From the NCBI GenBank assembly GCA_903872035.1, contig CAIQIZ010000009.1, forward strand, positions 7,299 through 71,298: 64,000 nt of DNA. The letters run 5' to 3'. Positions 9,589 to 48,162 of this stretch are shown here, in pieces. A model generated the notes under the pieces. That model saw only the letters and a program-made list of their open reading frames with translations, was not told the DNA's origin and made no database searches. Position numbers and translations under genes: made by a program. Numbering within the stretch: the first letter of the stretch is position 1; every line of letters starts with the position of its first letter. This DNA comes from an uncultured bacterium (GTDB lineage Bacteria; Patescibacteriota; Minisyncoccia; Phycocordibacterales; PALSA-1337).

Positions 9589-10413
9589 ATGTCTCAGGTC
9601 GTCACCGTTATCAGGCCTAAAAAGATCTTTCACCTGCATGATCTCAAAGAATTATGGCAGTACCGAGAACTGCTGTACTTCTTCAGCTGGCGCGACCTCA
9701 AGGTCAGGTACAAACAGACTGCGATCGGAGCTCTGTGGGCCATCTTCCAACCATTCATCACCATGGTGGTCTTCTCCGTATTCTTCGGCGGTTTGGCCAA
9801 GATCCCATCTGACAACGTTCCCTATCCGATTTTCGTCTACGTCGGATTGCTCTTCTGGCAATTCTTTTCTGGAGCGCTTTCCGATACCAGCGATTCGTTG
9901 GTCAATAATCGGGCCATCATCACCAAAGTCTATTTTCCACGCCTCATCCTGCCGGCCTCATCCGTCGTCACCAAACTAGTCGACTTCGCCATCGCTTCAG
10001 TCATCTTGGTCGGGCTCATGTTCTACTATGGCTATGTACCGCATCTGGCTGGTCTCCTCATTTTGCCGCTTCTGCTCATCATAACTTTCATGGCAGCCAT
10101 AGGCGGCGGTCTCTTCCTGGCGGCCATAAACGTCAAGTATCGTGACATCCGCTACGCTCTGCCATTCTTCATTCAGCTCATGCTCTTCGTCACCCCAGTC
10201 ATTTACCCAGCCAGCTTGGCTGGCAAATATTCCATGCTTCTAGCCATAAACCCGATGACTGGCGTCATCCAGAATGCCCGGGCAGCGCTCCTCGGCACAA
10301 CTCCGATAAACTGGCTGCTCATCGCCCTCTCATTCGTCGCCTGTTTCATCCTCCTCCTAGTCGGCATATACGTCTTCAAGAAAGTCGAGCGCTACTTCGC
10401 TGACATACTATAA
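9589..10413 (+). CDS. wzm: ABC-2 type polysaccharide/teichoic-acid export permease
   Basis: [31 protein letters not shown] signature of Wzm/KpsM/TagG permeases; 6 TM. Confidence 0.7.
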
Positions 10414-10417
10414 AATC

Positions 10418-11695
10418 ATGGAAAAACCTATCATCGAAGTCAAGAATCTGAGCAAGAAATATCTCATCAACCATGAGCGAGGTAAATACGTGGCTCTTCG
10501 TGATGTCATCTCCGGTTATTTCCGTAATCCATTTGGCTTCATCAGATCGAAAGTCCGAGCAGCCGCCGGTCTGGAAAAAAAAGAAGAATTTTGGGCCCTA
10601 AGCGATGTTAATTTTTCCGTGAAGAAAGGCGAGGTAGTCGGCGTCATCGGACACAACGGCGCCGGCAAGTCTACCCTATTGAAGATCATCTCGCAGATCA
10701 CGCCACCATCCGATGGAGAGATCATCATCCGCGGTCGCGTCGGGTCGCTCCTCGAAGTCGGCACTGGTTTCCATCCGGAATTGTCCGGCCGCGAGAATAT
10801 TTTCTTGAATGGCGCCATCCTCGGCATGAAGAGAGTGGAGATCGCTGAAAAATTCGACCAGATCGTGGCTTTTGCTGGCATAGAGAAATTCCTGGACACA
10901 CCGGTCAAATATTATTCGAGTGGAATGTATGTGCGTCTTGCCTTCTCTGTCGCCGCCCATATGGAGCCAGACGTACTTTTGGTAGACGAAGTTCTGGCCG
11001 TCGGCGACGCCGAATTCCAAAAGAAATGCCTTGGCAAGATGGACGAGATCACCAAGAAGGAAGGCCGGACCATCCTCTTCGTCAGCCATAACTTGGCGGC
11101 CATCCGCCAACTCTGCAAAAAGACTATCGTCCTCGGCCAAGGAAAGATCGCTTTTTCCGGCGATACCGACAAAGCCATAGAATTCTATATGCGTAATGCT
11201 CCAGAACAGACCAATCACGAAGATCTATCTGACAAAAAAAGAGAGGAGCGGGCAAGAAGGAATGTTCTTTTCACTAAGATATCTTTCCATGGGGCGTCGG
11301 GAGAAACGATGAACCGCGCACAATGCGGACAACCACTGATCGTCAGCTTGGCTTACAAATCCAAGACAAATACGACTCTGGAGAATTGTCGAGCTTCCAT
11401 CTCTTTCAAGACGACTTATGACGAGCTGCTTTTCCTTTGCGCCACAGACTTGGTGAATAAAGATAGGTTCGACTTGGCTCCGGAGGGAGAAATAAAATGC
11501 CGAATAGATAGCCTGCCTCTCCCCAAAGGCCGATATATGATCTCTATATTTTTCCAGGTAAATAATCAAATCGAAGACTGGATAGAGGAAGTGGCCGTCA
11601 TCGATGTTGAGAACGGAGATTTCTTCGGAACAGGTTCGGCACAGACATACCTCGAAGGTTCGAGCGTGCTCGTAAAACATAAATGGCTCCTATGA
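10418..11695 (+). CDS. wzt: ABC transporter ATP-binding protein with C-terminal extra domain (Wzt/TagH-like)
   Basis: Walker [13 protein letters not shown] signature YSSGM, Walker B LLVDE; about 170-aa C-terminal extension beyond the NBD as in Wzt carbohydrate-binding domains. Confidence 0.7.
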
Positions 11696-12396
11696 ACCCA
11701 TTCAACCTAGCTAAAAAAGTCGTTCCATATGTGCGCACGAAGATCTATTTCTTTAAAAAGAATATGGCGCATTCGCGGCAGTATTCGGATATCGATCGAC
11801 TTAGAATTACTTTCTCAAATCACCATCCCCTGCTTCTCCATTTCGGCTGCGGACCTCGCATTCTCAAAGATTGGATCAACATCGATCTCTATAGCGATCC
11901 CGAGAAAAAGAGCTCTAAAGGAAAGGCCGTTGATCTTCCTGCAAAAGAAAGCGGGACAAAGGATGATCTGTTCTGCTTCAATATCACAGAGACGGGCTTG
12001 CCTCTTCCGGACGGATGCGTTGACGCTATCTTTCATGAAGATTTTTTTGAGCATATCGATCAAATGGAACAAGTCATTTTTCTAGCCGAGACTTTACGAG
12101 TCATGAAAAAAGGAGCGGTGCACCGGATAAATTCACCTGATCTGCTGATCTCAATGAGGGATCATTCGGATTTTTCAAAAGGAAAAGATGGTGTGTATAT
12201 CGGCGAATGGAACAATCATGGCCACAAATCAATACCGACACATTCGTATATCAAAGAAATGGCCCTCATGGTTGGCTACAAAGAAGTGCGTTTTAACAGC
12301 CGCAACCAAAGCATCTCGAATTTTATCCCGCAAGAATTCAAACCGGCCAACGACAGGCCTGAAAACGGAAATATCTTCGCAGATCTGATCAAATAA
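11692..12396 (+). CDS. SAM-dependent methyltransferase
   Basis: motif [20 protein letters not shown], acidic motif [11 protein letters not shown]; ATGA overlap with wzt stop (track start 11683 is an upstream alternative). Confidence 0.5.
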
Positions 12397-12430
12397 CCAA
12401 TAGGTGTTCAACTATTAAATCCAATCAACA

Positions 12431-13489: not shown

Positions 13490-15031
13490 ATGAACGAAAT
13501 AGAATTGTCCCTCGGAGGCAGACGGGATCTGCCGATGAGGATATGTCTCATAATCCCACCGTCGCTTTTCCTCATGGATGAGCGCGTCTTTATCTCACTA
13601 GGAATCCTCAAGGTCGCAGCAGTTCTCGAGATATCTGGCCTCCAAGTCGAAGTGATCGATCTTTCCGGAGTCAAAAATTACGAGGAAGCCATATACGACT
13701 ATTGCATCCGCAGACCAGAGATCAAATGGTTTGGGATCACCTCGACTACCCCACAGTTCCCGGCTACCACCAAGATCGTCAAAACGATCCGAAGGAATGC
13801 CCCGGACGCAAAGATCATCATCGGCGGTCCTCACGCAACATTGGTGAACGCCGCTTACAAGCTGGAAAAGCGCTTGGGCAAGAACGGTCGCGCCGTCAAA
13901 GCCATCGCCAGGCTGCAAAGCTTGTTCGATGTGATCGTGGCCGGCGATGGCGAAGAAGCCATCTTTCAAGCATTCGGCCAATCAGCCGGAGCGATCGTCG
14001 ATGCCGACAACACAGCATCTCCTCTATTCCTGACCAACCGACGTCTGACCGAACTACCGTTCCCGGCACGTCACCTCGTCGATCTCGAAAGCTACCATTA
14101 CTCGATCGATGGCGTTCCTGCCACCTCGCTCATCGCACAGCTTGGCTGCCCATTCGGTTGCGGCTTCTGCGGCGGCCGAGAATCATCCGCGCTTCGAAAG
14201 ATCCGGACTCGCACTTCAGAGAACATCGTCTCGGAGATAGTCCACCTTCACCATACGTATGGGATGAATGGATTCATGCTCTACGACGACGAACTCAACG
14301 TCAACAGAGACATGGTGACCCTGATGCGGCTTATCGCAAAGACTCAACAGGATCTCGATGTGGAATGGCGCCTTCGCGGCTTCATCAAGTCCCACCTCTT
14401 CACAGACGAACAGGCTGATGTCATGTATGCGGCCGGGTTTCGCTGGATCTTGGTCGGCTTCGAATCCGGCTCGCCGGAAATCCTGGAGACCATCAACAAA
14501 AGAGCCACCCGAGAAGAGAATACTCGCTGTTTGGAGATCGCTCACAAACACGGCCTCAAAGTGAAAGCCCTCATGTCCATCGGACATCCTGGAGAATCAC
14601 CAGAGACCATACAAGCAAGCAAAGATTGGCTTATTCAGAACAGACCGGACGATTTCGATGTCTCCATCATCACACCGTATCCAGGTACCCCATACTTCGA
14701 TCATGCAGTCATGAACAAAGATGGATTCTGGGTCTACACAAGCCCAAAAAATGGAGACCAACTGCTACAGGTCGAGGTGGATTATGCCGAGGTCGAAAGC
14801 TATTACAAAGGCGATCCGAACGGAGGATACCGATCCTGCGTCTTCACCAAAGACATCTCCGCCGACGGGCTCGTCTCGGCTCGTAACACACTCGAGAAGG
14901 AAGTCAGGGAGATACTAGAGGTTCCTTATAACGTCGGCGCGCCATCGATCCAGTATGAACACTCGATGGGTCAGCACGGATTCCCTTCGAACATCCTACG
15001 CACGACTGACGAGGTTCAATGCGTTCCTTGA
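13490..15031 (+). CDS. B12-binding domain radical SAM enzyme (class B, probable methyltransferase)
   Basis: N-terminal Rossmann-like cobalamin-binding region; CPFGCGFC = CxxxCxxC radical-SAM cluster motif. Confidence 0.7.
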   Translation: MNEIELSLGGRRDLPMRICLIIPPSLFLMDERVFISLGILKVAAVLEISGLQVEVIDLSGVKNYEEAIYDYCIRRPEIKWFGITSTTPQFPATTKIVKTIRRNAPDAKIIIGGPHATLVNAAYKLEKRLGKNGRAVKAIARLQSLFDVIVAGDGEEAIFQAFGQSAGAIVDADNTASPLFLTNRRLTELPFPARHLVDLESYHYSIDGVPATSLIAQLGCPFGCGFCGGRESSALRKIRTRTSENIVSEIVHLHHTYGMNGFMLYDDELNVNRDMVTLMRLIAKTQQDLDVEWRLRGFIKSHLFTDEQADVMYAAGFRWILVGFESGSPEILETINKRATREENTRCLEIAHKHGLKVKALMSIGHPGESPETIQASKDWLIQNRPDDFDVSIITPYPGTPYFDHAVMNKDGFWVYTSPKNGDQLLQVEVDYAEVESYYKGDPNGGYRSCVFTKDISADGLVSARNTLEKEVREILEVPYNVGAPSIQYEHSMGQHGFPSNILRTTDEVQCVP

Positions 15032-15056
15032 ATCTGTTTGATCAACGTTTTTTACT

Positions 15057-15083
15057 CCCCTGCCGGTCGCGGGGGATTTTTTT
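15057..15083 (+). terminator. rho-independent terminator after radical-SAM gene
   Basis: CCCCUGC-CGGUC-GCGGGGG hairpin followed by AUUUUUUUA between convergent genes. Confidence 0.6.
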
Positions 15084-15997: not shown

Positions 15998-16849
15998 ATG
16001 CCTAAAATGAAAACTACGACCAAATCCGCAAAGGATATCGTAAAAGGATTGACACCTCCCTTCTTGTACGACACCGTCCGATCTCTCATAAAGGGCTCAA
16101 AGCAGCCGAGGCCGTCCTGGATAACGTTGAACTACAAACCGATGGTAAGCGTCAAGCTATATCTCGACCCAACAGGCTCGTGGCAACAAAAGATGATCGA
16201 TGGTTCATACGATCGATTCCTATTCGACCAGATAGCGAAACTGAACCCAAAAGGTAAAACCATATACGACTTAGGCGCGCATATCGGATATCACTCATAT
16301 TATTTCGCCAAACTCGTGAGTGAAACTGGCACCGTTTACGCCTTTGAACCAAACCTGGCGAACATTTCGAGGATAGAAATGATCCTGAAAAATAATCCCG
16401 ATCTTCAGAAGATCGTCAAACTACAAAAAGTGGCTATCTCCGATATGACCGGAAAGACCGAATTCAATATGAGCGAAGATATCGAAAGCGGCCGTAGCTC
16501 CGGCAATTTCATCGGCAAGGCTGATCCATTCTTTAATAAGGAAGTCTATAAATATAAGAATTTCCAGAAAACTGAAGTCAGCGTCACTTCTCTTGATGAC
16601 CTCACCAAGGACGTGGATCCTCGGCTTCTTCCGGATATCATCAAGATAGATATTGAAGGTGCAGAATTTTTGGCATTGAAAGGAGCAACGGGGCTGCTCG
16701 AGCGGAAGAAACCGGTACTATTCATCGAGGTGCACTCCATGCAAAACATGTTCAAGATAATGACTTTCTTGAATTCTATTTCCTACAGATCCGAAATCAT
16801 TCACACAGAGAATAACGGCATCTGCTACCTGCAAGCCCAAGCGAAATAA
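15998..16849 (+). CDS. FkbM-family methyltransferase
   Basis: IYDLGAHIGYHS motif I and hallmark IIKIDIEGAEFLALKG. Confidence 0.65.
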   Translation: MPKMKTTTKSAKDIVKGLTPPFLYDTVRSLIKGSKQPRPSWITLNYKPMVSVKLYLDPTGSWQQKMIDGSYDRFLFDQIAKLNPKGKTIYDLGAHIGYHSYYFAKLVSETGTVYAFEPNLANISRIEMILKNNPDLQKIVKLQKVAISDMTGKTEFNMSEDIESGRSSGNFIGKADPFFNKEVYKYKNFQKTEVSVTSLDDLTKDVDPRLLPDIIKIDIEGAEFLALKGATGLLERKKPVLFIEVHSMQNMFKIMTFLNSISYRSEIIHTENNGICYLQAQAK

Positions 16850-16850
16850 T

Positions 16851-17792
16851 ATGCGGACCCACGCTATAACCATATTCGACAAGAACTACCTCGGTCGAGT
16901 TCTGGCCTTCCGAGAATCATTCGAGGCACATTCACCAGAAACACATGTCCACTTTCTCTGTCTGGATGAGACATCGTATGAGATGTTATCGAAGTTGAAT
17001 CTGCCAAATACCACTCTGGTACAAGTGAGCGACCTCAAAGACCCCGAACTCGTTGCGTCACGTGAGACACGAACGGGACCGGAATTCGCTTCGACGACCA
17101 AACCTGCCTTCTTGCAATACATGTTGAATAGCGGATCGGTCGGACCAGCAGATCTACTGGTCTTCATAGACCCCGACTTCTTCTTCTATGAGTCGCCAGA
17201 AGCTATCTTTAAAAAAATGTACGATTCTGGTTCGATCATCATCACGTCTCACCGTTTTCCGAAGCAAAGAGAGAATGAGCAATTTATGAAAGGAAAATTC
17301 AACGCGGGATTCATGGGCTTTCGGAACGACGCGAACACCAGAATATGCCTGGCGGAATGGCGCAAGCAATGCATCGACTGGTGCTATATCAGATTCGAAG
17401 ATGGCAAGATCGGAGACCAAGGATATCTAACGGAGTGGCCGAACAAATATAAGGGCGTATATGTGCTGCCGGATCTCGGGGTTAATCTGAGTACCTGGAA
17501 TATCGCCAACTATTCTATAAAAGAATCCGGATCGGGACATTTCCTCATAGATGGCCAACCTCTAATTTGTTACCACTTCCATGGGATGAGACTGTATTTC
17601 GATCGAAAGAATCGAGTACAAGCAGCCCCAATAACAGTTTTCAACAAAGATATCTATAGACCCTATGTCCAAGCCTTACAAAGAGCCTACGATCGTTTAC
17701 AGACTCTCGAGAAGAATTGGACGCTGGGAACGATCCCAAATCCCGGGTTTTTACGCATACTTAAACAGAAGCTCATGAGAGCTTTTCAATGA
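16851..17792 (+). CDS. putative nucleotide-diphospho-sugar transferase-like protein
   Basis: alternating beta/alpha pattern with IDPD acidic motif; no strong family call. Confidence 0.3.
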   Translation: MRTHAITIFDKNYLGRVLAFRESFEAHSPETHVHFLCLDETSYEMLSKLNLPNTTLVQVSDLKDPELVASRETRTGPEFASTTKPAFLQYMLNSGSVGPADLLVFIDPDFFFYESPEAIFKKMYDSGSIIITSHRFPKQRENEQFMKGKFNAGFMGFRNDANTRICLAEWRKQCIDWCYIRFEDGKIGDQGYLTEWPNKYKGVYVLPDLGVNLSTWNIANYSIKESGSGHFLIDGQPLICYHFHGMRLYFDRKNRVQAAPITVFNKDIYRPYVQALQRAYDRLQTLEKNWTLGTIPNPGFLRILKQKLMRAFQ

Positions 17793-27652: not shown

Positions 27653-28074
27653 AGCTGTACAGTAACCGTCCTATCACGAAAAATCAACTTGTTGTATACG
27701 AAATAATTCACCACGGCGATAGCGGCGCTGACGATGATCTGGGAAATAATATAATGGATATGGAGCATCGAGACGAGGAGATAAACAGCGTATGTATTGA
27801 CGATCAGAGAAACGACGGCGACGAACAAATATATGAATCCTTGCTTATGGATCTTGTCCATGGAATTGTCGCGGAATGTCCAGAATTTTTGTAGACCAAA
27901 GCTAACTCCAAAAGCGATTATGAAAGCCAGAACAACCGATATGACATACCAAATGTGCACGAAGTCTGTAAATATGTAAAGTAATGCCAAGTCGGTGAAA
28001 GCGGCCGTACCTCCCGCGATCAGATATCTCGCGATCTTGGCGTGCTTCTTTATTTGGTTGATGATGATTTCCAT
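27649..28074 (-). CDS. GtrA-family small membrane protein (polyprenyl-P-sugar translocation-associated)
   Basis: 4 TM, YLIAGGTAAFTDLALLYIF and QKFWTFRD typical of GtrA. Confidence 0.6.
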   Translation of the reverse strand: MEIIINQIKKHAKIARYLIAGGTAAFTDLALLYIFTDFVHIWYVISVVLAFIIAFGVSFGLQKFWTFRDNSMDKIHKQGFIYLFVAVVSLIVNTYAVYLLVSMLHIHYIISQIIVSAAIAVVNYFVYNKLIFRDRTVTVQL

Positions 28075-36300: not shown

Positions 36301-36302
36301 AT

Positions 36303-39675: not shown

Positions 39676-39676
39676 T

Positions 39677-40618
39677 TTATAGATTTATAGTCTCGGCGAT
39701 CTTGTACGGCGCCTTATCCTGGGATTCGTAATAGACGCGCATTACCATCTCGGCCACCACACCCATAGCTGCCAACTGCACGCCGACTATGATGAAGAGC
39801 GCAGAAAAGATCGGTAAAGGCGTGGCCACGAAATCACGGATAGCGAATATCTTCAGGATCAAGGCCCACATACCGGCGATGACTCCCAAACCGAGAGAGA
39901 TGAAGCCCAGGCCGCCGAAGAAATGAATCGGTCGATCCATGTATTTGGAAAGGAATTTCACAACGATAAGATCGAGGATGACTCGGAATGTTCTCCCGAT
40001 GCCATACTTGGCCACGCCGTGGATGCGAGCGCGATGATTGACGACGATCTCGGTGACCTTGCCGCCATGCCAGGCAGTATAGGCTGGAATAAAACGGTGC
40101 ATCTCTCCATAAAGCTGTACCCCTTGGATGATGTCGCGTCGGTAGGCTTTCATGGAACAACCATAGTCATGGATCTTCACTCCAGTGATCGTCCGGATCA
40201 TCCAATTGGCGATCATGGATGGGATCTTTCGCATCAGGACCTTGTCCTGTCGCTTCTGACGCCAACCTGAAACCACATCAAACCCTTCATTGATCTTAGA
40301 CAAGAATTTCGGTATATCGGCCGGATCGTTCTGTAGATCGGCGTCCATGGGAATGATCACGTCGCCTGTGGCATTCTTGATACCTGCCGACATAGCCGCG
40401 GTCTGACCAGAATTGAAACGAAAGCTGATGACTTTGACGTTCTTATCTTTGGCTGCAATCTTTTTGAGCTCGCCCAAACTGCCATCGCGCGAGGAGTCAT
40501 TAACGGCGATGACCTCATAGTCGATCTTTTCACGGTCAAAAACGGCCTTCAGTTCTTTGTAGAGAATAGGGATATTCTCATCTTCATTGTATATAGGTAA
40601 AACGATTGAGACCTTCAT
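39677..40618 (-). CDS. polyprenyl-phosphate hexose synthase, GT2 (DPM1/GtrB/ArnC-like)
   Basis: VSIVLPIYNEDENI, VIAVNDSSRDGS, IIPMDADLQNDPADI; C-terminal TM helices. Confidence 0.7.
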   Translation of the reverse strand: MKVSIVLPIYNEDENIPILYKELKAVFDREKIDYEVIAVNDSSRDGSLGELKKIAAKDKNVKVISFRFNSGQTAAMSAGIKNATGDVIIPMDADLQNDPADIPKFLSKINEGFDVVSGWRQKRQDKVLMRKIPSMIANWMIRTITGVKIHDYGCSMKAYRRDIIQGVQLYGEMHRFIPAYTAWHGGKVTEIVVNHRARIHGVAKYGIGRTFRVILDLIVVKFLSKYMDRPIHFFGGLGFISLGLGVIAGMWALILKIFAIRDFVATPLPIFSALFIIVGVQLAAMGVVAEMVMRVYYESQDKAPYKIAETINL

Positions 40619-41697
40619 AGTTTTTTGAAATATTCCGCCAAGCCTCGAGCAAATCTTTCCGGGTCCAGATATTCTACCGCAAATTTCCGCGCTTCAGAAC
40701 CAAGCCTACTCCTAAGGTCAGCATTTCTCAAGAGTTTGCTGATTTCTGTTCGCATTGCGGCCTGATCTTTGTATGGTACGAATACGCCGTTAATGCCATC
40801 TTTCACATACGATTCCATGCTCTTGGTATGAGTTACTATGACTGCCTTGCCCATCGACATAGCCTCGCCAAGAGCGAAAGTTCCGACCGAATCAGTGTAG
40901 TCGTCGCGCTTGGCAACAGCGACCACGGCAACTTTTGACTCGGCAAATGCGTGCAACATCTTGTCATGAGGATATGTCTTTACGGTCACGTGAGGCGGGA
41001 TCGTTTCCGGCATATCTATAGACATGTGGCGATATTTCACAGCTGATGCAGGTTTGGTGGCCAAGCGACACTCAACGTTCAAGCCTTTAGTCGCCTCTAT
41101 AACGGTGGTGAAGTCTCGACCATAATTACCGACAGAGATGACCACGTCTTTTTCCATTCCGCCAGCCGGCAGATCCAGTTGCGGCTTGAAATAATTTGGA
41201 TCAGTGGCTTCTCTCAAGAAAATCACATTCTCGGCAAGCTTTGGAAATCTTTTCTTCATGGCATCAGCCGCCGCTTGGGAGATACAAACTATGCCATCTG
41301 CCTTCGATACGGCCCAGGCATACATCTTTTGGCGGAATCCCTTACCATCAGCTATCGTTCCGAGCACATTGAAATCCAAGATCACCCACTTGAATCTCTT
41401 GATATGGAGAAGTGCCTTCAGAACAAGAGAGCTGTAAGCTGTCGAAGTAAAAACGATGTCATATCTAAAGAATAGCGGGAAAAGCGGCAAGTGCGCATAG
41501 TGCATAGTCAAAATGTGCCGACGCAAGAATCGTGTGAGCCAAAACGGCATGAATTGCTCGATCTCCAAGTGATCAGCCTGTACTCCGTATTTTGGTAAGC
41601 GCAACATACCAAAGCACCAGCTGTCATGCCCTTTTCCCTGACGAGCATCGTCGATAGTTTTGGCTAGAACCTTATTGAAAAGATAGAGAACTTTCAT
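40615..41697 (-). CDS. GT4 (GT-B) glycosyltransferase
   Basis: Rossmann pair; C-terminal VAVAKRDDYTDSVGTFALGEAMSMGKAVIVT. Confidence 0.6.
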   Translation of the reverse strand: MKVLYLFNKVLAKTIDDARQGKGHDSWCFGMLRLPKYGVQADHLEIEQFMPFWLTRFLRRHILTMHYAHLPLFPLFFRYDIVFTSTAYSSLVLKALLHIKRFKWVILDFNVLGTIADGKGFRQKMYAWAVSKADGIVCISQAAADAMKKRFPKLAENVIFLREATDPNYFKPQLDLPAGGMEKDVVISVGNYGRDFTTVIEATKGLNVECRLATKPASAVKYRHMSIDMPETIPPHVTVKTYPHDKMLHAFAESKVAVVAVAKRDDYTDSVGTFALGEAMSMGKAVIVTHTKSMESYVKDGINGVFVPYKDQAAMRTEISKLLRNADLRSRLGSEARKFAVEYLDPERFARGLAEYFKKL

Positions 41698-42311
41698 CTC
41701 TTTTTCAAAACTAGAAAATATTCTCTTCGGAAAAACGGCGTAAAATGTCCGATGGTAAATGAAATGAAATAAGCCAACTTATTCTTGTACGAGTCGCCTA
41801 TGTAAAACAGACCTACCGGTTCAAACTCCTTTAACCCTTCGAATTCTTCTCTGCTATCAGGGCGAAGCAATTTGATGACGGCGGCCGGCGGATAAGGCTT
41901 TATATGACCAAATGTCTCCCAAAACTTCTTTGTAACTACTTCAGAGCTCAAGACGAGAAAACCACCAGGCCTTAGAACTCGCGAGGTTTCTTTGAGCATG
42001 CCGTATGCAGCCGCAACATCGAGATGTTCTATGACATTATGGCAGTGAGCCATCTCAAATTCACCATCACCAAATGGCATGTTTTCTCCACTAGCGGAGA
42101 AAACGTTGAACCCTTCCGATTTGAGCCTGGCTACCACACGCTGATTTGGGTCAAATCCAGTGACGAGCTTCCGGTCATGCTTCATGAATTCCCCTTCGCC
42201 ACAACCGACGTCTAGAGTCTTCTTTCCCTTAAAGTAAAACTCATAGAGAAAGCTTCGACCTTTGAGGCGATTCTTCAACATGAACCAGAAGGATGGGGTG
42301 TAATTTCTCAT
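41694..42311 (-). CDS. SAM-dependent methyltransferase
   Basis: KKTLDVGCGEGEF motif I, FEMAHCHNVIEHL, RPGGFLVLSSE. Confidence 0.6.
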   Translation of the reverse strand: MRNYTPSFWFMLKNRLKGRSFLYEFYFKGKKTLDVGCGEGEFMKHDRKLVTGFDPNQRVVARLKSEGFNVFSASGENMPFGDGEFEMAHCHNVIEHLDVAAAYGMLKETSRVLRPGGFLVLSSEVVTKKFWETFGHIKPYPPAAVIKLLRPDSREEFEGLKEFEPVGLFYIGDSYKNKLAYFISFTIGHFTPFFRREYFLVLKKR

Positions 42312-42335: not shown

Positions 42336-43493
42336 TCACTTGCTAAATATCGGCAGATCATTAAAAGTGATCTTGTTCGTTCGTTGTTTGTCCACAAATA
42401 CCTTGGCCCGTTTCAGCATAGCATCTCTTTCCTGACTTGGCGTCAAACAGAATTTCACTCGCTCACTGAAACCAGCTTGACTATCCCCATCGTGCCAGAT
42501 GCGGCCACGATCACCATCGTTTCCTATGGTTTCGACGATGCCATCAGCTTCGCTACCTATGACCGGCACATCCATATGCATAGCCTCCCAAAAGACCAGA
42601 CCTAGCGCTTCAGCTTTGGAAAGCAGCACGAATAAGTCTGCATCAGCATAATAGTTCCAAATCTCATCGCGGTGTATGAATCCAGGAAATATCAATCTAT
42701 CTTGGATTCCCAATGATTTGGCTTGTCGATTTAGCGGCTCCAGGAGACTTCCCCGGCCTAGGGCGATCAAGACATAACCCGAACCTAATCCCGCGAACAG
42801 CTCCAGTAACTTAGGATAATTCTTTTCTGATTCGAGACGTGCAACAGTCAAGATCACTTTCTGGTTTGGAGCGATCGCGTGTTTAGTTCGTATCACACCT
42901 TTCTTGGCCTTTGTAATAAATTCCAAGTCGCGGTCGATCGTATTCACATAAAAGACTGTTATATACTTTTCCGGAATGCCGATGTTCTTCAGATACGTCT
43001 TCATATTCTCATTTATCGTAAAGAAATGGTCGGCCAAGCGCCACCAGAGCTTTTCTGTCGCCCATGAATAGAATCCCTTGATCGCCCCAAATCTCCTTGT
43101 CTGCGAATACACTCGCGGCTGATTGCTTACACAAAGGACGATCTTGCCGCCAAAGATAAGTTTGGCCAACCAAAGAGCCGGCAACATACCAAAGTCATAA
43201 GTCATCCAGGCATCCGGTTTGAGCTTGAACCTCTTCACGGTGAATGGGACCGAAATCAGAGTCAGAAGATCGAGCACCGGCTTCAAAGAATAGAGCCTGG
43301 TCTTTTTGTGAATCGTTTTGAATCGACCTTCGAGACTCACATATGAGACGTTGGCCCAAGAAAAGAAGAAGAAATCATTCATGGACGGATTCAACTGGTC
43401 GCGTTCCAATTTATCTTTGAGCTCGACGAATGAGGTGCGAAAGATATCGCGCCAGTCATAATTGATCATGAATATGGAGAGTGTTCGGATCAT
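42336..43493 (-). CDS. GT4 (GT-B) glycosyltransferase
   Basis: LSKAEALGLVFWEAMHMDVPVIGSEADGIVE E-x7-E region. Confidence 0.65.
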   Translation of the reverse strand: MIRTLSIFMINYDWRDIFRTSFVELKDKLERDQLNPSMNDFFFFSWANVSYVSLEGRFKTIHKKTRLYSLKPVLDLLTLISVPFTVKRFKLKPDAWMTYDFGMLPALWLAKLIFGGKIVLCVSNQPRVYSQTRRFGAIKGFYSWATEKLWWRLADHFFTINENMKTYLKNIGIPEKYITVFYVNTIDRDLEFITKAKKGVIRTKHAIAPNQKVILTVARLESEKNYPKLLELFAGLGSGYVLIALGRGSLLEPLNRQAKSLGIQDRLIFPGFIHRDEIWNYYADADLFVLLSKAEALGLVFWEAMHMDVPVIGSEADGIVETIGNDGDRGRIWHDGDSQAGFSERVKFCLTPSQERDAMLKRAKVFVDKQRTNKITFNDLPIFSK

Positions 43494-44638
43494 TGAAGTT
43501 TTGCGGTCGGGGGGTCCTTCCTGGAGAGCGCCGAGGACGGGTAGCCAGCGATCAGCGCCCGCAGGCGGCGGAAGGAAGGACCCCCCGACCGCATCTCTTC
43601 GGCTAGTCGCGTGCCAAGCATCGATAAACTATGATTATCCTGGACGAATTTTCTAACAGAAAGCGCACGAGCACGTCGGTCATCAATAGATAATTCCAAT
43701 AGAGACCTTATCTTTGCTGTCAATTCACTAACATCGTCTTCTTTAAATAAATAAGCGGAATCTATCTTACCAATGAGATTCTTATTGCAAGAGAGAGCCA
43801 AAGCGCCACAGGCCATGGCTTCAAATATTGTCTTGTCGAACATTCCGCTCGGACTCAAGTTGACAAATATCTCATGAGCGGAAAAAATGGCGGGTAGCTC
43901 ACTGTTCGGCACGCCGGCTTTGAAGGTAACGCGCTCATCTATATGTAGATCGGCAGTTCGTCGCTCCAACGATTCAAAATACCCGACGTCTTGTGACGAC
44001 ACATTTCCTATGAATAAAACACTGAAATCTATTCCTTCCTTCTTCAATATGCCTAAGGCTTCGATCAGTTGATCCAGTTTCTTTGACGGTGAAATACGTC
44101 CGACGGACAGGATCGAGTGAGGTATCCGAACTGTTTCTGGTCGAAAATTGAATATTTCCGTATCGACCCCGACCGGCATGAAGACAGTATTCTTGAATTT
44201 GGCTGTGTATGAAAACTTTGAGGTACAAAAAACTTTGGTACAAAAGAAAGCTGCCATATCCGTCAGAAAACTCCCAGCGTAATGGTTACGCCACATGTAG
44301 ACTGGCTTGCCCATAATTTTCCAGAGCGGACCGCCCAAGATCGCGTACTCCTGATTCTGATGGACGAAGACCACATCATAATCCTTTCGAAGCGTTAAAG
44401 CGTATTTAAAAAATCTGTACACATATTTCACTCGTGACACACCCACCTCCTTGCCCAAGGAAAACACTTCAACATTCGCTGGCAAATCATGAGTACCCTC
44501 GTAAAGACAGACCACCTTAACCGTCTCGAAATGCTTGGCCAATTCCGTTATCCAAAGATGGAAGAAGCTAAGGACACTATCACGAAGATCTACTTTTTGA
44601 GCAAAGATAAGGAGTTTCATATTATTTGGAGGTGGCAC
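43490..44638 (-). CDS. GT4 (GT-B) glycosyltransferase (C-terminal about 35 aa encoded by the palindrome)
   Basis: GT-B N- and C-domains; ORF reads through 43502-43593 palindrome giving tail SGGPSFRRLRALIAGYPSS; alternative ATG at 44620. Confidence 0.55.
   Translation of the reverse strand: MPPPNNMKLLIFAQKVDLRDSVLSFFHLWITELAKHFETVKVVCLYEGTHDLPANVEVFSLGKEVGVSRVKYVYRFFKYALTLRKDYDVVFVHQNQEYAILGGPLWKIMGKPVYMWRNHYAGSFLTDMAAFFCTKVFCTSKFSYTAKFKNTVFMPVGVDTEIFNFRPETVRIPHSILSVGRISPSKKLDQLIEALGILKKEGIDFSVLFIGNVSSQDVGYFESLERRTADLHIDERVTFKAGVPNSELPAIFSAHEIFVNLSPSGMFDKTIFEAMACGALALSCNKNLIGKIDSAYLFKEDDVSELTAKIRSLLELSIDDRRARALSVRKFVQDNHSLSMLGTRLAEEMRSGGPSFRRLRALIAGYPSSALSRKDPPTAKLQ
43502..43593. repeat. GC-rich perfect 20-bp inverted repeat with about 52-nt spacer, inside 3' end of GT4 ORF
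   Basis: TGCGGTCGGGGGGTCCTTCC ... GGAAGGACCCCCCGACCGCA; both strands remain open through it. Confidence 0.7.
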
Positions 44639-45776
44639 CTCCTAGAGCGCTTTCCCACGACTGAACCATGAGTTGGTCGCTTTCTTCACGCGTCATATAG
44701 ATATCAGCTTGGCGCTTGGCTTCTTGGCCAAGATTGGTGGCAAAAGCCCGATTGCTATACAACTTCTCAAGCGCTTCAGCCATAGCATTTGGATCGCGAG
44801 TCTCGACGATGAGACCGCTCTTCTCATTGATGAGAAATTCATCAGCACAACCGACATCAGTCATGATGGTCGGCCGCCCTACTGCGGCTGCTTCTATCAC
44901 TGTCATACCCCATCCTTCATAATCAGAGGACATCAGGAAACAGTCACAAGTCTTCATGAGCGAAGCGAATTCGGAAGCCCAGGAACCGATAATGACGGAA
45001 TCATCCATTTTGAGCTCAACAACTAAATCTTTGAGGCTGTCACCTTCTGGACCAGATCCAGCGACGACGAGACCAACATTCTTATGGATCTTCTTGAAGA
45101 GGCTGAAAGCTTCAATAGCTAATGGAATATTCTTTTGCTTCACATAGCGGCAGGCCACCAAGACGATCCAGTCGAAATGTGGATACTTCGCATGCAGATC
45201 GGTCGTCACGGCCACATTCCTGACTGCCTCCACCTCTACGAATATAGGCGCAATGATGATCTTTGAGGCGGGTATTTCAAGCGAGTCGCGAAGATACGTA
45301 GCGATCTTTTGCGAGACGACACGGATGCTCGCGGCTCCACGCAAGACGAACGGCACCAAAAAAGCCTGGGATCTCTGTCTCAATGATTCTTGCCGGAAAT
45401 ACGGACTGAAGAAATCGATGTGAACCTGCACGTTCCGCGGCCTCCGAGTCAGCCAGGAAGCCAGGATGCCTATCAAGCCCAATTCGAATGGATCTTGAGT
45501 GACGATGACCGTATTATCTTTGGCCAATTTTTTTGCAAGGCGCAGAGCTTTCATCGCTGCGACCAATTTGACGCTGCCAGTAGCCGGATGTGCGGTCACG
45601 TTGTTCTTGAGCATGACCGGCGACGCAGAAATTCCGCTGCCTTGAAGCGAGATGATATCTATTCCTTCAACCAAAGTCCCAAAATGCTCCATCCTCTCTA
45701 CGACAGCGCTACCAGCCTTAAAGATCCCGCCGTCAACGGAGAACATCAGCAGATGGATTTTTGATTTCGGCTTCAT
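44622..45776 (-). CDS. GT4 (GT-B) glycosyltransferase
   Basis: start set at ATG (MKPKSK) overlapping upstream stop as ATGA; track start 45827 is TTG; VLVACRYVKQKNIPLAIEAF, SSDYEGWGMTVIEAAAVGRPTIMTDVG. Confidence 0.55.
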   Translation of the reverse strand: MKPKSKIHLLMFSVDGGIFKAGSAVVERMEHFGTLVEGIDIISLQGSGISASPVMLKNNVTAHPATGSVKLVAAMKALRLAKKLAKDNTVIVTQDPFELGLIGILASWLTRRPRNVQVHIDFFSPYFRQESLRQRSQAFLVPFVLRGAASIRVVSQKIATYLRDSLEIPASKIIIAPIFVEVEAVRNVAVTTDLHAKYPHFDWIVLVACRYVKQKNIPLAIEAFSLFKKIHKNVGLVVAGSGPEGDSLKDLVVELKMDDSVIIGSWASEFASLMKTCDCFLMSSDYEGWGMTVIEAAAVGRPTIMTDVGCADEFLINEKSGLIVETRDPNAMAEALEKLYSNRAFATNLGQEAKRQADIYMTREESDQLMVQSWESALGGATSK

Positions 45777-46810
45777 GCCTTTTTTGATCTCCAAACCTTG
45801 ACGATCTCGCCAGCTATCTCTTCCCAAGTGTGGACGAATGAGAACTTCGCGACTTTGGCAGCTTGAGCGGCACGATTCCGTGGATCAGCCAACCAAAGGA
45901 TCTTCTCGGTCATATCGTTCTCATCTTCTGGATCGACAAAGATCGCGCATTCTTTGACCCGATCGGCGATCCCTGTCTCCTTAGTCAAGATAAATGGTGT
46001 GCCGACTCGGATAGCATCGAAGATCATATTGGGGCTGATATCGCCCAATGAAGCCAAGATGACCGCGTAGGAATGATGGATCTTTTCTAGGAAGCTGTCG
46101 TAGATCGCTTTTCCGCAATCAAGGTCTATATCAGGTAAGTTTTTGGACCGCAATCCCTTCTCGGCCGATTCGAAGGACTTCTTCAGACGTTCGATGTTTT
46201 TCCATTTGAGTGTCCGCGTCCCTGCCACGAATGACCGGTTTTCTGGTTCGATCGAAGGTAATCTTGGTCCACAGAAATTCTCGACGATGGCATTCCTTCT
46301 CGGATCAAGCTTGTAAGCCTTCTCGAATATCCTCCTCTGCCAATCAGTGCTGAAAATTATGGCCGATGCCCTTCGCAAAGCTTTACCACCCCAGCGATAG
46401 ATCAGTCTTTCCCTAAATGAAAGATTGCTTAATTTGGTGTCGATCACTTTCTGGTAAAAATCCTTGAACAAGACGAGCTCTCCCGTCCGCTCGATGTAAG
46501 TTTCCCAAAGACGGTCGCCACCTGTGCGGATGATATATTTCTTCCGAAGAAGCGCGCAAGCGATCATGGTGGGCACTGCTGCATTCCAAGTATCGAGAAC
46601 CAATACCAAATCTGCCTTCCAAGCTTTGCGGAAAACTTTGGTCAAATACAACAAATTGCTCAAAGGTGATGGCACTGCCCTTTCCCATCGGTAGGCTGCC
46701 ACTTTTACCTCATGACCCTGTTTCTTCCAGGTCTCATAAAGGTTGCGGGCGTACTGGGCGGGACCGCCGATATCGGGAGGATATATGCCAGATGCGATCA
46801 AAATTTTCAT
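45773..46810 (-). CDS. GT-B fold glycosyltransferase-like (GT4-related)
   Basis: MKILIASGIYPPDIGGPAQYARNL N-terminus typical of GT4 N-domain; divergent C-domain. Confidence 0.45.
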   Translation of the reverse strand: MKILIASGIYPPDIGGPAQYARNLYETWKKQGHEVKVAAYRWERAVPSPLSNLLYLTKVFRKAWKADLVLVLDTWNAAVPTMIACALLRKKYIIRTGGDRLWETYIERTGELVLFKDFYQKVIDTKLSNLSFRERLIYRWGGKALRRASAIIFSTDWQRRIFEKAYKLDPRRNAIVENFCGPRLPSIEPENRSFVAGTRTLKWKNIERLKKSFESAEKGLRSKNLPDIDLDCGKAIYDSFLEKIHHSYAVILASLGDISPNMIFDAIRVGTPFILTKETGIADRVKECAIFVDPEDENDMTEKILWLADPRNRAAQAAKVAKFSFVHTWEEIAGEIVKVWRSKKA

Positions 46811-46853
46811 ACGAATCAGTCTACCACAAACATGAATTTGGAGTTAGGAAAAC

Positions 46854-46942
46854 GATCTTGGTGGAAAAAGCCTCCTCGCCTTCCAATCGAAAAACGGATC
46901 GACCAGCCTTCGACTCATTCGAATACTTTTTCCACCAAGATC
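46854..46942 (-). repeat. short member of the extended-hairpin element family; overlaps last codons of 46915-48162
   Basis: 17-bp perfect stem GATCTTGGTGGAAAAAG/CTTTTTCCACCAAGATC; loop begins ATTCGA and ends GGCGAGGAGG like copies at 7069 and 55788; closing-stem consensus cTyGGyGGAmAA shared. Confidence 0.5.
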
Positions 46943-48162
46943 TCCTGCATCTTCTTAGCTATCATGATCCATTGGTACTTCTCGCGGATCATTTTGGAGG
47001 CATTCTTAATGATGTAATCTCGTGATTCCTTGTCCTTGATCAATTTTTCGACTTTCTGAGCGATCGAGCGAGGATTGCCGACTTCGCAAAAAAGTCCGGT
47101 CTCGCCATCTTTCAAGAAATCAGGTATGCCGCCAACCGGAGTGGCGATGATAGGAAGTCCAGCCGCCATAGCTTCGAGAAAAGAAACTCCCAAACCTTCC
47201 GACAATGACGGTCTGACGAATATATCCGAGATCTGCAAATACGGCGGCATGTCTTTGTGCGAGATGAAGCCTAGGAATTGCACACGGTCAATTACTTTCA
47301 CATTATTCTTGCAAGTCGATTCTCCATTATTCAAGCCGAGTTCGATCGCTAGTTCCCTCAACTTCCCTTCTTCATGTCCTTGACCGAGGATGAGCAATTT
47401 GATATTCGCCGGCAAGTACTTCAAAGATTCTATGATATCGCCGACGGCATTCTTCTCTACCAAGCGCGAAGTCGTCACCAGAAAGACGTCGTTTTCTTTC
47501 TTGCCAAGTTTCGACTTCAGATCGACGGCCTCTTGGCTAGAGATCGGCTTTGAGAACAATTCAAGATCTACAGCATTGGGTACGACTGTCACCGGACATT
47601 TGGCACCCATATTCTTAGCCCAATCAGCCAGATAATTTGAAATGGTCTGGATATGGTCGGCTTTGGTGAAGATCATCTTGAAGAGCGGATACAAGGGCAA
47701 TGCACGACGCTTCAAGTAAGAGATGGGGTCACCGTCTTGCAAAGTAAGCAGATAAGGTATCTTCGGATGCATCAGCTTGAAAAGCACCGCCGCGAAGGAA
47801 CTGTAATTGGCCATGATCGACCAGATCGCATCGTATTTCCGCTTTCGATTCAAGCTGATGGCTTTCGATAGGCCAGTCAATAAATATGCGTATTTATTTA
47901 AATTTAAGTAGAATGGCAGCGAGTCTGTCGAGAACTTCTTTGACGTCGACCAACCGATGCGGTAAATATTCACATTGCCGATCTTTTCGTATTTTGGTAA
48001 GCGCGAATCGAGACACAAAGTGATCATGTCAAATTCGATATCGCCCGGAGCGATCCGGTCAGTGATCTCTTTGATAGCGACTTCAGCCCCGCCGATGAAA
48101 CGAGGGTAATAGGCGAAGGAGAAAATCAGCACATGAGGCTTATTCAACGGAGTGATCATCAT
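46915..48162 (-). CDS. GT4 (GT-B) glycosyltransferase
   Basis: FVRPSLSEGLGVSFLEAMAAGLPIIATPVGGIPDFL. Confidence 0.7.
   Translation of the reverse strand: MMITPLNKPHVLIFSFAYYPRFIGGAEVAIKEITDRIAPGDIEFDMITLCLDSRLPKYEKIGNVNIYRIGWSTSKKFSTDSLPFYLNLNKYAYLLTGLSKAISLNRKRKYDAIWSIMANYSSFAAVLFKLMHPKIPYLLTLQDGDPISYLKRRALPLYPLFKMIFTKADHIQTISNYLADWAKNMGAKCPVTVVPNAVDLELFSKPISSQEAVDLKSKLGKKENDVFLVTTSRLVEKNAVGDIIESLKYLPANIKLLILGQGHEEGKLRELAIELGLNNGESTCKNNVKVIDRVQFLGFISHKDMPPYLQISDIFVRPSLSEGLGVSFLEAMAAGLPIIATPVGGIPDFLKDGETGLFCEVGNPRSIAQKVEKLIKDKESRDYIIKNASKMIREKYQWIMIAKKMQEILVEKVFE

Follow-up and report, generated by a model that had tools for sequence, protein, structure and literature searches.

Background

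The combination of glycan export by an ATP-binding cassette (ABC) transporter with decoration by GT-C glycosyltransferases that use polyprenyl-phosphate sugars (polyprenyl-P-sugars) is known from three systems. The O1 and O2 antigen loci of Citrobacter youngae join a Wzm/Wzt exporter, whose Wzt carries a carbohydrate-binding module, to a methyl-containing WbdD-like terminator and a synthase/flippase/GT-C system, and a similar three-component modification occurs in the ABC-dependent O antigens of Klebsiella (PMC11127046). The slg cluster of Paenibacillus alvei contains wzm, wzt, an O-oligosaccharyltransferase with a Wzy_C domain and tetratricopeptide repeats (TPR), an AsnB homologue and a lipid-P-Glc side-chain system (PMC2943079). 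The third is the group A carbohydrate of streptococci. Here we analyse a 64,000-nucleotide stretch of DNA from an uncultured bacterium (contig CAIQIZ010000009.1; below, the window), in which positions 9589-48162 hold a dense run of genes for glycan assembly. We favour, with moderate confidence, the explanation that this locus is a variable cell-surface glycan island of a Paceibacteria bacterium, functionally analogous to an O-antigen or S-layer-glycan locus, and that its product is ligated to surface proteins.

Given these three precedents, the claim of an earlier note on this DNA that the gene combination matches no described O-antigen, teichoic-acid or S-layer cluster fails: ABC export together with polyprenyl-P-sugar/GT-C decoration has already been described in all three. 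The pathway logic itself is known. What is distinctive here is the host lineage, the scale, the lack of precursor genes, the additional transmembrane (TM) helix and TPR of the ligase, and a new GT-C family.

With the ABC-dependent O antigens (Escherichia coli O8/O9a, C. youngae O1/O2, Klebsiella O2 gml) the locus shares an initiator that is encoded elsewhere (here presumably), a synthase/flippase/GT-C set in the same locus and a ligase of the WaaL family (PMC11127046). The missing initiating transferase, which the earlier note presented as an oddity, is in fact common: in ABC-dependent pathways the gene for the initiating WecA often lies at another place on the chromosome (PMC11127046). The differences are nevertheless substantial. 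Those O antigens are attached by a ligase to lipid A-core of diderm bacteria, and their flippases are of the MATE type, while the candidates here are GtrA and UPF0104 proteins; the ligase here has an extra TM helix and TPR, and the numbers of GT-C enzymes and methyltransferases are several-fold higher. No Paceibacteria genome is known to encode lipopolysaccharide.

The slg clusters of P. alvei CCM 2051T and Geobacillus stearothermophilus NRS 2004/3a are similar in another way. They, too, belong to bacteria without an outer membrane and combine Wzm/Wzt and cytoplasmic glycosyltransferases with capping by a methyltransferase domain (WsaE), the methylated end being proposed to be bound by Wzt; they likewise have a Wzy_C O-oligosaccharyltransferase with C-terminal TPR (WsfB), an asparagine-synthase homologue (WsfA), and a lipid-P-glucose synthase with a separate side-chain glucose transferase (WsfH/WsfD) (PMC2943079). 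Unlike our locus, the slg clusters carry their own WsaP/WsfP initiator, rml nucleotide-sugar genes and an adjacent S-layer gene, whereas here we find five GT-C enzymes, two flippase candidates, about ten methyltransferase domains and a radical SAM enzyme, and recognised no S-layer protein. Extensive methylation as such is known from the S-layer O-glycans of Kuenenia (PMC5088730).

The group A carbohydrate (GacA-L) is a cytoplasmic polymer built on polyprenyl pyrophosphate (polyprenyl-PP), with its primer enzyme (GacO) outside the cluster and ABC export by GacD/E; its GT2 polyprenyl-P-GlcNAc synthase GacI, small membrane partner, flippase and outer GT-C enzyme GacL (GacI/J/K/L) also have counterparts here (bioRxiv 10.1101/180810). 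It differs in being attached to peptidoglycan by LytR-CpsA-Psr (LCP) proteins and in having no WaaL-type ligase, no Wzt_C domain and no comparable methylation load.

Presentation of the hypothesis

In the pathway that we propose, families, folds, topologies, gene order, conservation and synteny are observed, while the order of the steps follows characterised systems by analogy. A lipid-linked primer would be made by a phosphoglycosyltransferase encoded elsewhere. At the cytoplasmic face, eight GT4 enzymes, possibly with up to three GT-A-like proteins, would extend the glycan on its polyprenyl carrier, and class I and FkbM methyltransferases would O-methylate it, the glycan being their presumed substrate. 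A terminal modification, probably a methyl group added by the methyltransferase whose gene overlaps wzt, would be read by the C-terminal domain of Wzt as in E. coli O8/O9a, and Wzm/Wzt would export the capped chain. On the outer face, five GT-C enzymes would add side-chain or extending sugars from polyprenyl-P-sugars, donors that three GtrB/ArnC/AglJ-like GT2 synthases would supply and the GtrA and UPF0104 proteins would flip. AsnB probably amidates a carboxylated sugar. Finally, the Wzy_C protein, with its WaaL fold and a TPR predicted to face outward, would transfer the finished glycan en bloc, most likely to Ser/Thr-rich anchored surface proteins such as the 585-residue protein encoded immediately downstream; a second, direct route of glycosylation to such proteins may run through the PMT_2/PgfS-like modules. 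By analogy, then, the most likely product is a methyl-rich glycan on Ser/Thr-rich surface proteins, with acceptor and sugars both putative.

A hybrid pathway for a methylated glycan or protein glycan had also been suggested in the earlier note. Cytoplasmic assembly and export and GT-C decoration stand, O-methylation is likely and a protein glycan plausible; the suggested C-methylation is the part that does not carry over (see below).

Candidate ligase and acceptors

Genes are designated below by their first coordinate in the window (Table 1). The left boundary of 9589 that the earlier note had drawn is too tight, since it leaves out, by 74 bp, the divergently transcribed gene 7218. This gene encodes a candidate glycan ligase or protein O-oligosaccharyltransferase, as judged from its sequence. 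The AlphaFold 2 (AF2) model of the protein (predicted local distance difference test, pLDDT, 85) has nine TM helices, an 80-residue loop, TM helices at 361-389, 395-414 and 419-433, a linker, a thirteenth helix at 477-518 and a TPR superhelix at 524-763. The protein joins a Wzy_C domain to the 12-TM fold with a large outer loop that is seen in WaaL. With the N-terminus placed inside by positive-charge counts, the loop and the TPR are both predicted to face outward. The loop also carries what we take to be the WaaL/PglL outer-loop motif, H[NSQ]x9Gxx[GTY], as H359-N-VFLDWLVDS-G370-I-V-G373, in which H359, G370 and G373 are invariant in 44 sequences.

Full-length homologs of the ligase form at least 120 clusters at 51-76% identity, and their source names point to Paceibacteria/Patescibacteria. 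The protein is far more conserved than the island and adjoins islands that use either Wzx or Wzm/Wzt. Islands and exporters change from relative to relative but the ligase persists, so that its acceptor is probably a fixed one, and this pattern of conservation probably fits a fixed-acceptor ligase better than a repeat-unit polymerase. In our opinion a protein is the most likely acceptor, both for this reason and because a Wzy_C domain with C-terminal TPR is the architecture reported for the O-oligosaccharyltransferases WsfB and PglL (PMC2943079).

A candidate acceptor is at hand. The 585-residue protein encoded directly downstream has an N-terminal anchor and a mucin-like tract at residues 143-312 (170 residues, 66% Ser, Thr or Pro, with poly-Pro runs). 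Public gene callers shorten its open reading frame (ORF) to 203 or 268 residues and place small opposite-strand ORFs inside the tract. The gene belongs to an eight-gene block that is inserted between the ligase gene and murB-secA (49-6769 in the window, continuing to the left as 10551-17470 of contig L047) and that encodes Ser/Thr-rich anchored proteins, a GT-A-like protein, a methyltransferase-like protein, a TM-anchored protein of beta-lactamase fold and a 929-residue DUF2341/LamG protein. The block has the look of a module for surface proteins that is strain-specific and attached to the island. A search of this left flank against PHROGs returned no structural phage matches that would mark it as a prophage.

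The exporter and the proposed chain capping

An ABC-2 permease gene and the gene of an adjacent Wzt/TagH-type ATPase, 4 bp apart, form an export pair of the Wzm/Wzt pathway. Wzm is 70% identical to the ligase-adjacent Wzm of the related locus L038. The C-terminal Wzt_C domain of Wzt scores 49.5 bits against a cut-off of 30.4, the top matches by sequence in the PDB are Wzt, TarH and TagH structures, and the best of these is full-length Aquifex Wzt (8dku, E 2.4e-63, aligned residues 55-380). The galactan Wzt model of NCBIfam gives 177 bits, and the nucleotide-binding domain scores best against the teichoic-acid exporters TagH/TarH. Gene 11683, which overlaps the wzt stop codon, encodes a candidate for the chain-terminating methylase; its product shows no similarity to WbdD.

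The affinity to TagH/TarH bears on a different explanation, in which the product is a secondary cell-wall polysaccharide of the kind represented by streptococcal rhamnopolysaccharides or by teichoic acids. Polyprenyl-PP would be its carrier and Wzm/Wzt its exporter, GT-C enzymes would decorate it on the outside, and an LCP phosphotransferase encoded elsewhere would attach it to N-acetylmuramic acid of the peptidoglycan, the Wzy_C-TPR protein having another role. The position of the ligase gene beside murB in relatives agrees with it, as does the fact that the group A carbohydrate pathway follows the same logic of modules in a bacterium without an outer membrane (bioRxiv 10.1101/180810). However, no LCP gene lies in the window or the inspected flanks, and a conserved WaaL-fold ligase stands at the island edge in every relative examined. 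Enzymes of the WaaL/PglL kind take their glycan from polyprenyl-PP and pass it to a hydroxyl group on lipid A-core or protein; peptidoglycan is not their acceptor, and this counts against a wall polysaccharide. We regard it as unlikely, and ligation to surface proteins as the better explanation.

Glycosyltransferases, flippase candidates and AsnB

Sixteen glycosyltransferases are confirmed in the island: eight GT4/GT-B enzymes, three GT2 domains and five GT-C enzymes. We did not count GT-A-like DxD motifs that were seen by eye. The GT4 enzymes (28847, 33430, 40615, 42336, 43490, 44622, 45773 and 46915; the earlier note had counted at least nine) are mutually divergent, with at most 30% identity, and NCBIfam returned only generic, sub-threshold matches for their sugar specificity.

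Two of the GT2 proteins, 23603 and 39677, are the DPM1/GtrB/ArnC-like synthases with C-terminal TM helices that had been recognised before, and both align full length with the ArnC and PgfS models. In NCBIfam, 23603 scores 276 bits with PgfS (equivalog cut-off 500) and 168 bits with ArnC, both below cut-off; 39677 is 75-79% identical to its counterparts in relatives. The third GT2 domain (24648) is fused to an N-terminal domain that reaches 18.9 bits with Methyltransf_23, below the cut-off, and has no motif I, so that its earlier description as a methyltransferase-GT2 fusion has to be corrected; the same fusion stands beside GtrA-PMT_2 in the related locus L048. Pfam also agrees with the earlier calls of a GtrA protein and a UPF0104 flippase-like protein. 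Together these make up a three-component extracytoplasmic glycosylation system: GT2 proteins with C-terminal TM helices, predicted flippases, and GT-C enzymes with an acidic motif.

Could these modules work independently of the exported polymer? Two or more adjacent systems would then exist, one for an ABC-exported polymer and another resembling Pgf or GtrB/PgtC2, in which PMT_2 enzymes put single sugars, taken from polyprenyl-P-sugars, directly onto Ser/Thr-rich disordered regions of membrane proteins. In the streptococcal Pgf and GtrB/PgtC2 O-glycosylation systems a GtrB/PgfS-type GT2 and a GT-C enzyme indeed act on Ser/Thr-rich anchored proteins (PMC12041528; PMC5856776). PMT_2 is a protein O-mannosyltransferase family, 23603 scores best against PgfS, a Ser/Thr/Pro-rich anchored protein is encoded nearby, and the GtrA-PMT_2-methyltransferase/GT2 module travels as a unit, being found with a different exporter in L048. 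The likeness to Pgf has its limits: the PgfS score stays far below the cut-off, there is no PgfE-type epimerase here, and the acceptor is a candidate. Moreover, the modules are interleaved and tightly packed in a 26-kb one-strand block with overlapping stop and start codons, and since glycans and lipids, too, are decorated by GT-C enzymes of the PMT_2 type (ArnT, Gtr-type), membership of this family leaves the acceptor open. We find independent systems rather improbable as the whole explanation; they are in any case compatible with a ligated surface glycan and not exclusive of it.

All five GT-C enzymes proposed earlier are polytopic and have a DE pair 30-70 residues from the N-terminus, after the first TM helix, in the first outer loop. 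Three (18567, 22168 and 25976) are recognised by PMT_2 and two (29908 and 34624) by AF2 and Foldseek; 18567 and 22168 are 42% identical. The pair 29908 and 34624 is paralogous (34% identity) and of particular interest. Pfam, NCBIfam and phmmer searches of the PDB were of no use for them: 34624 has no Pfam or PDB sequence match, 29908 reaches only 21.7 bits with PF03901 (cut-off 23.8), weak PF03901 matches occur in only 8 of the 25 family members, and there is no significant match to the models of the CAZy-classified GT-C families GT22, GT39 and GT83. The AF2 model of 34624, made from 25 homologs (pLDDT 87, predicted template-modelling score 0.89), has as its top Foldseek matches only GT-C proteins (ALG12, ArnT, ALG9, DPY19, Pmt4 and PglB; probability 1.0). 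An exhaustive profile search of 1.84 billion representatives matched the family in only 59 clusters at E<=1e-30, or in 221 at E<=1e-3; some 47 full-length members precede a sharp fall in score. D-E-Q is an invariant feature of the family. Judging from the model and the search, 29908 and 34624 belong to a discrete, small, previously unclassified GT-C family. Several members (P0028, P0030, P0032, P0165 and P0170) have an N-terminal extension of about 140 residues, for which PF04138 (GtrA) is recorded in the first three; such flippase-transferase fusions tie the family to the use of polyprenyl-P-sugars.

The unclassified family is closest to ALG9/ALG12, which depend on dolichol-P-mannose, and this would also suit a membrane-anchored lipoglycan of the lipomannan/lipoarabinomannan type. 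A glycerolipid or phosphoinositide would then be the direct starting point of a GT4 enzyme, with extension by other GT4 enzymes inside and, from polyprenyl-P-sugars, by GT-C enzymes outside, and a phosphoglycosyltransferase would be unnecessary; indeed, none was found in the island of the window or in those of four relatives. The GT4 enzymes match glycolipid synthases weakly (MGlcDAG synthase, GlcN-PG synthase, IagA/BgsA). In mycobacteria, PimA/PimB followed by the GT-C Mpt enzymes provide a parallel, and mycobacterial arabinogalactan and lipomannan/lipoarabinomannan share with our locus a Wzm/Wzt-type exporter and many GT-C enzymes fed with polyprenyl-P-sugars by a GT2 synthase. They differ in lineage, in GT-C families and in their attachment to peptidoglycan or a phosphatidylinositol anchor, and no decaprenyl-P-arabinose genes occur here. 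The glycolipid-synthase matches are far below cut-off and no better than those to GT4 enzymes acting on polyprenyl-PP. Besides, Wzm/Wzt with Wzt_C and a WaaL-fold ligase typify polymers that are linked to polyprenyl-PP, and a lipoglycan needs no ligase. A lipoglycan seems very unlikely to us, and a polyprenyl-PP-linked glycan that is ligated to protein is preferred.

The AsnB-type amidotransferase, also correctly named in the earlier note, is 73-76% identical in relatives and, wherever present there, is paired with the ArnC-like GT2. This pair (37807-40618, 1-bp gap) is the most conserved part of the island (73-79% in the related loci L032/L034) and is absent from L048, which suggests a self-contained module making an amidated polyprenyl-P-linked sugar.

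Methyltransferases and the radical SAM enzyme

About ten methyltransferase domains are supported in the island: three FkbM proteins, three single class I enzymes (11683, 32501 and 41694) and two two-domain proteins (20035 and 36303). The three FkbM and two tandem proteins of the earlier note are thereby retained, while its total of at least 12 domains becomes an upper estimate. The N-terminal half of 36303 is 67-69% identical to its counterparts in L032/L034.

As the earlier note had it, gene 13490 encodes a B12-binding radical SAM protein with a CxxxCxxC motif (CPFGCGFC, residues 220-227), the domains and motif of class B (cobalamin-dependent) radical SAM methyltransferases; its identity as a methylase is another matter. 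The best PDB match is the diol dehydratase AprD4 (E 3.5e-19), and the NCBIfam scores of HpnJ (117 bits), PhpK (107), BchE (103) and AprD4 (83) are far from the cut-offs of 480-600, so that no characterised methylase subfamily is reached. Sugar C-methylation, deoxygenation or another radical reaction are all possible on the basis of sequence. The subfamily being ambiguous, a C-methylated product is unproven rather than false.

Variation of the island among relatives

Judging from the proteins encoded in the flanks, the host is a Paceibacteria bacterium (Parcubacteria, Candidate Phyla Radiation (CPR)). Among the products of the flanking genes are MraY-, MurC- and MurD-like proteins, RadC, a 23S rRNA intervening-sequence (23S-IVS) protein and many hypothetical proteins. 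At 60-69% identity, the MurC-like protein matches proteins of metagenome-assembled genomes (MAGs) that carry the labels Candidatus Taylorbacteria, Paceibacterota, Parcubacteria or Patescibacteria. These MAGs are also syntenic with the right flank between the TraD-like ATPase and RadC.

Comparison of the relatives, which the earlier note had proposed, reveals a conserved frame (ATPase, island, ligase-MurB-SecA) around variable content. In four to five relatives, murB-secA comes after the ligase gene; before it stands a glycan island, which differs in content. At the other end, the ATPase gene is followed by a GT4 gene at 18-20 bp. The exporter varies: L032, L036 and L048 have a Wzx-type flippase, and L038 and the window have Wzm/Wzt with Wzt_C. 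So does the size, which is about 16 kb between the anchors on one contig of a Taylorbacteria MAG and 38.7 kb here. The island has a core block in common with L032 and L034, at 44-81% identity, in the order GT4s, methyltransferase, GT4, ArnC-like GT2, AsnB, methyltransferase, new GT-C, GT4, methyltransferase, UPF0104, GT4 and FkbM; the accessory parts are the Wzm/Wzt-methyltransferase-radical SAM unit, the GT-A-like genes and the GtrA/PMT_2/GT2 modules, of which the GtrA-PMT_2-methyltransferase/GT2 unit recurs in L048. In gene content and synteny the island behaves like a variable locus for a surface glycan, of the O-antigen type: its place on the chromosome is fixed, and its content is swapped between relatives.

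The adjacency of the ATPase and GT4 genes is kept in relatives, including L048, at about 70% identity. Here the ATPase gene lies 18 bp upstream of the first GT4 gene on the same strand with no terminator between them, and it may head the 26-kb minus-strand operon. The island reaches at least to 7218 on the left and probably to the ATPase gene on the right. Just beyond the ATPase, relatives also keep a TM-anchored DUF4015 putative glycoside hydrolase (50626-51882, minus strand, 309 bits), which may be another envelope-glycan enzyme outside the island.

Weighing the hypothesis

Several points weigh against the proposal that a glycan is ligated to surface proteins. Acceptor, sugar identities and methylation sites are putative and follow by analogy, and the outward position of the TPR depends on the helix count of the AF2 model. 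The family of the ligase, PF04932, also takes in Wzy polymerases. In the relatives no Ser/Thr-rich protein was found beside the ligase, murB following directly, and the C-terminal domain of the 585-residue protein has 3 homologs only among 5.8 billion clusters. Because about 90 kb that were inspected contain no initiating transferase, no LCP ligase and no nucleotide-sugar pathway, the carrier lipid and the chemistry of attachment are assumed. For four proteins of the island (12431, 15117, 16851 and 21674) no reliable match was obtained in Pfam (E up to 10), NCBIfam, PHROGs or the PDB.

Implications of the hypothesis

The CPR/Patescibacteria account for a large share of bacterial diversity and live attached to or dependent on other cells. 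To our knowledge, next to nothing is known about the chemistry of their envelopes, and the literature that we searched contains no description of their glycan loci. A Paceibacteria bacterium appears to devote about 40 kb to a surface glycan; related genomes are smaller than 1 Mb (one relative is represented by an 876-kb contig), so we estimate that this is several percent of such a genome. The highly conserved WaaL-fold ligase, with its TPR predicted to face outward, is the constant partner of a swapped island. Together with the Ser/Thr-rich proteins and the unclassified GT-C family it offers a target for questions of how such cells are presented to hosts and phages, and the island is a possible source of new methyltransferases and GT-C enzymes for glycoengineering.

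One may speculate further that the Wzy_C-TPR protein is a near-universal general protein O-oligosaccharyltransferase of Paceibacteria and the methyl-rich island the determinant of a kind of serotype. With almost no nucleotide-sugar metabolism, these bacteria would vary their surface not through new sugars but through SAM-dependent methylation, amidation and side chains added by GT-C enzymes. How the episymbionts attach to hosts, and to which phages they are susceptible, would depend on this coat, and two parts of the system would be specific to the lineage: the co-oriented TraD-like ATPase and the GT-C family that is restricted to Paceibacteria. This extension is doubtful, and we offer it tentatively.

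Integrity and content of the locus

The uninterrupted 38.6-kb glycan locus of the earlier note is confirmed. It holds 34 intact ORFs, each of at least 141 residues and without frameshifts, at a coding density of 98%, with 13 start/stop overlaps and a widest gap of 123 bp; the 26-kb minus-strand block with interleaved modules mentioned above comprises 23 genes. Annotation with hidden Markov models bears out most of the family assignments, and the census was essentially right apart from the corrections already given: 28 of the 34 genes exceed curated Pfam cut-offs, and a role in glycan assembly can be assigned to 30 with Pfam, NCBIfam and structure prediction (Table 1). We also agree that the locus itself contains no nucleotide-sugar gene, no phosphoglycosyltransferase and no Wzx. 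An initiating phosphoglycosyltransferase is found neither there nor in the inspected flanks, where the MraY-like protein is the sole PF00953 protein.

G+C is flat (0.45-0.49) across locus and flanks, and neither G+C nor skew over the locus gives a sign of recent horizontal acquisition. Exact-protein look-ups found identical genes in identical order on contigs from several projects and assemblers, among them a 105-kb JGI contig, a 99-kb ENA contig, a 46.5-kb Logan contig and several BUCK21 scaffolds. Jointly these independent contigs span every junction at 99.9-100% nucleotide identity. A chimeric assembly of glycan genes from several organisms, which the earlier note had named as a way in which it could be wrong, is ruled out by these contiguous assemblies, the uniform G+C and the syntenic flanks.

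Two strong terminators suggest the outlines of the transcription units: one at 15056-15076, after the radical SAM gene, and one at 50199-50170, upstream of the ATPase gene. A promoter scan showed no enrichment over shuffles; of the signals for transcription, these two terminators alone were informative. No tRNA genes were found.

Table 1. Genes of the glycan island and its surroundings, in order of position in the window
Product	Position	Strand	Evidence and remarks
Methyltransferase-like, 183 residues (weak)	567-1118	-	27% identity to C-terminal domain of 36303, E 1e-6
GT-A-like, 244 residues (weak)	2119-2853	-	phrog_12406 glycosyltransferase E 2.3e-5; PF00535 E 0.013
Anchored protein, 503 residues	2870-4381	-	24% Ser+Thr; candidate surface protein or acceptor
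Membrane-anchored protein, 585 residues	5012-6769	-	Ser/Thr/Pro-rich tract; directly downstream of ligase; candidate O-glycosylation acceptor
Candidate ligase, 765 residues	7218-9515	-	Wzy_C (WaaL-fold) membrane domain and C-terminal TPR; divergent from wzm
Wzm, ABC-2 permease	9589-10413	+	PF01061, 56.8 bits
Wzt	10418-11695	+	ATPase (ABC_tran PF00005) and C-terminal domain of carbohydrate-binding type (Wzt_C)
Class I methyltransferase	11683-12396	+	Methyltransf_11 25.4 bits (cut-off 21.2); overlaps wzt stop codon
Cytoplasmic protein, 311 residues	12431-13366	+	No Pfam, NCBIfam or PDB match; GT-A-like EDD motif by eye
Radical SAM enzyme with B12-binding domain	13490-15031	+	PF04055 89 bits, PF02310 47 bits
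Protein, 286 residues	15117-15977	-	No reliable match; DxD-like motif FIDADVYV by eye
FkbM methyltransferase	15998-16849	+	PF05050 80 bits
Possible GT-A nucleotide-sugar transferase (weak)	16851-17792	+	PF03407 E 0.005, below cut-off
FkbM methyltransferase	17828-18535	+	PF05050 73 bits; 44-45% identity to L032/L034 orthologs
GT-C (PMT_2)	18567-20024	+	PF13231 39 bits; about 10 TM helices; DE at residue 36
Two-domain class I methyltransferase	20035-21624	+	Two Methyltransf_23/_11 stretches; motif I at residues 55 and 333
Protein, 148 residues	21674-22120	-	About 4 TM helices; no reliable family match
GT-C (PMT_2)	22168-23625	-	PF13231 48 bits; DE at residue 38
GT2, polyprenyl-P-sugar synthase type (GtrB/PgfS/ArnC-like)	23603-24553	-	PF00535 107 bits; 2 C-terminal TM helices
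Degenerate methyltransferase-like N-domain fused to AglJ/DPM-like GT2	24648-25979	-	PF00535 87 bits; AglJ model 111 bits
GT-C (PMT_2/PMT)	25976-27652	-	PF13231 43 bits; DE at residue 30
GtrA-family small membrane protein	27649-28074	-	PF04138 81.5 bits; proposed polyprenyl-P-sugar flippase
FkbM methyltransferase	28050-28850	-	PF05050 46 bits
GT4	28847-29911	-	Glycos_transf_1; 44% identity to L032/L034
GT-C, unclassified small family	29908-31539	-	Paralog of 34624; weak GT22 match; 57% identity to L034 ortholog
UPF0104/LPG_synthase_TM, flippase-like	31556-32491	-	PF03706 108 bits; TIGR00374 (flippase-like domain) 47 bits
Class I methyltransferase with C-terminal TM helix	32501-33415	-	Pfam; motif I at residue 73
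GT4	33430-34584	-	Pfam, 130 bits
GT-C, unclassified family	34624-36369	-	AF2 and Foldseek; true start probably 36249 or 36300
Two-domain methyltransferase	36303-37766	-	Two Pfam stretches; domains are separate genes in relatives
AsnB-type glutamine amidotransferase	37807-39675	-	Asn_synthase 331 bits; TIGR03108 564 bits, below cut-off
ArnC-like GT2 polyprenyl-P-sugar synthase	39677-40618	-	PF00535 115 bits; ArnC model 199 bits; 2 C-terminal TM helices
GT4	40615-41697	-	Pfam
Class I methyltransferase	41694-42311	-	Pfam; 81% identity to L032
GT4	42336-43493	-	Pfam; first of five consecutive GT4 genes (42336-48162)
GT4	43490-44638	-	Pfam
GT4	44622-45827	-	Pfam
GT4	45773-46810	-	Pfam
GT4	46915-48162	-	Pfam; kept next to ATPase in relatives
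TraD/VirD4/HerA-like soluble ATPase	48180-50108	-	Pfam; phrog_5156 E 1e-62
MraY-like	55980-57134	+	Among mur genes; TIGR00445 159 bits (cut-off 192)

Some further observations concern the window as a whole and its right flank. Compared as a whole (1-64000), the window is 99.9-100% identical, over tens of kb, to L001-L005 and L039-L046 from metagenomes of several independent projects, which suggests a clonal population of wide distribution, in which no microdiversity is visible, not even in the island. The MraY-like protein stays below the TIGR00445 cut-off despite about 80% identity among relatives. Its ORF overlaps by 388 nucleotides a FemAB/ATE_C-like ORF (56747-57817, plus strand); public calls for the pair are 381 and 227 residues, and the second start is probably much further downstream. 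The gene of the 23S rRNA intervening-sequence protein (60540-60902, minus strand) lies between PALP and MurD-like genes, and a gene for a GmrSD-family nuclease is found about 8 kb past the right end of the window.

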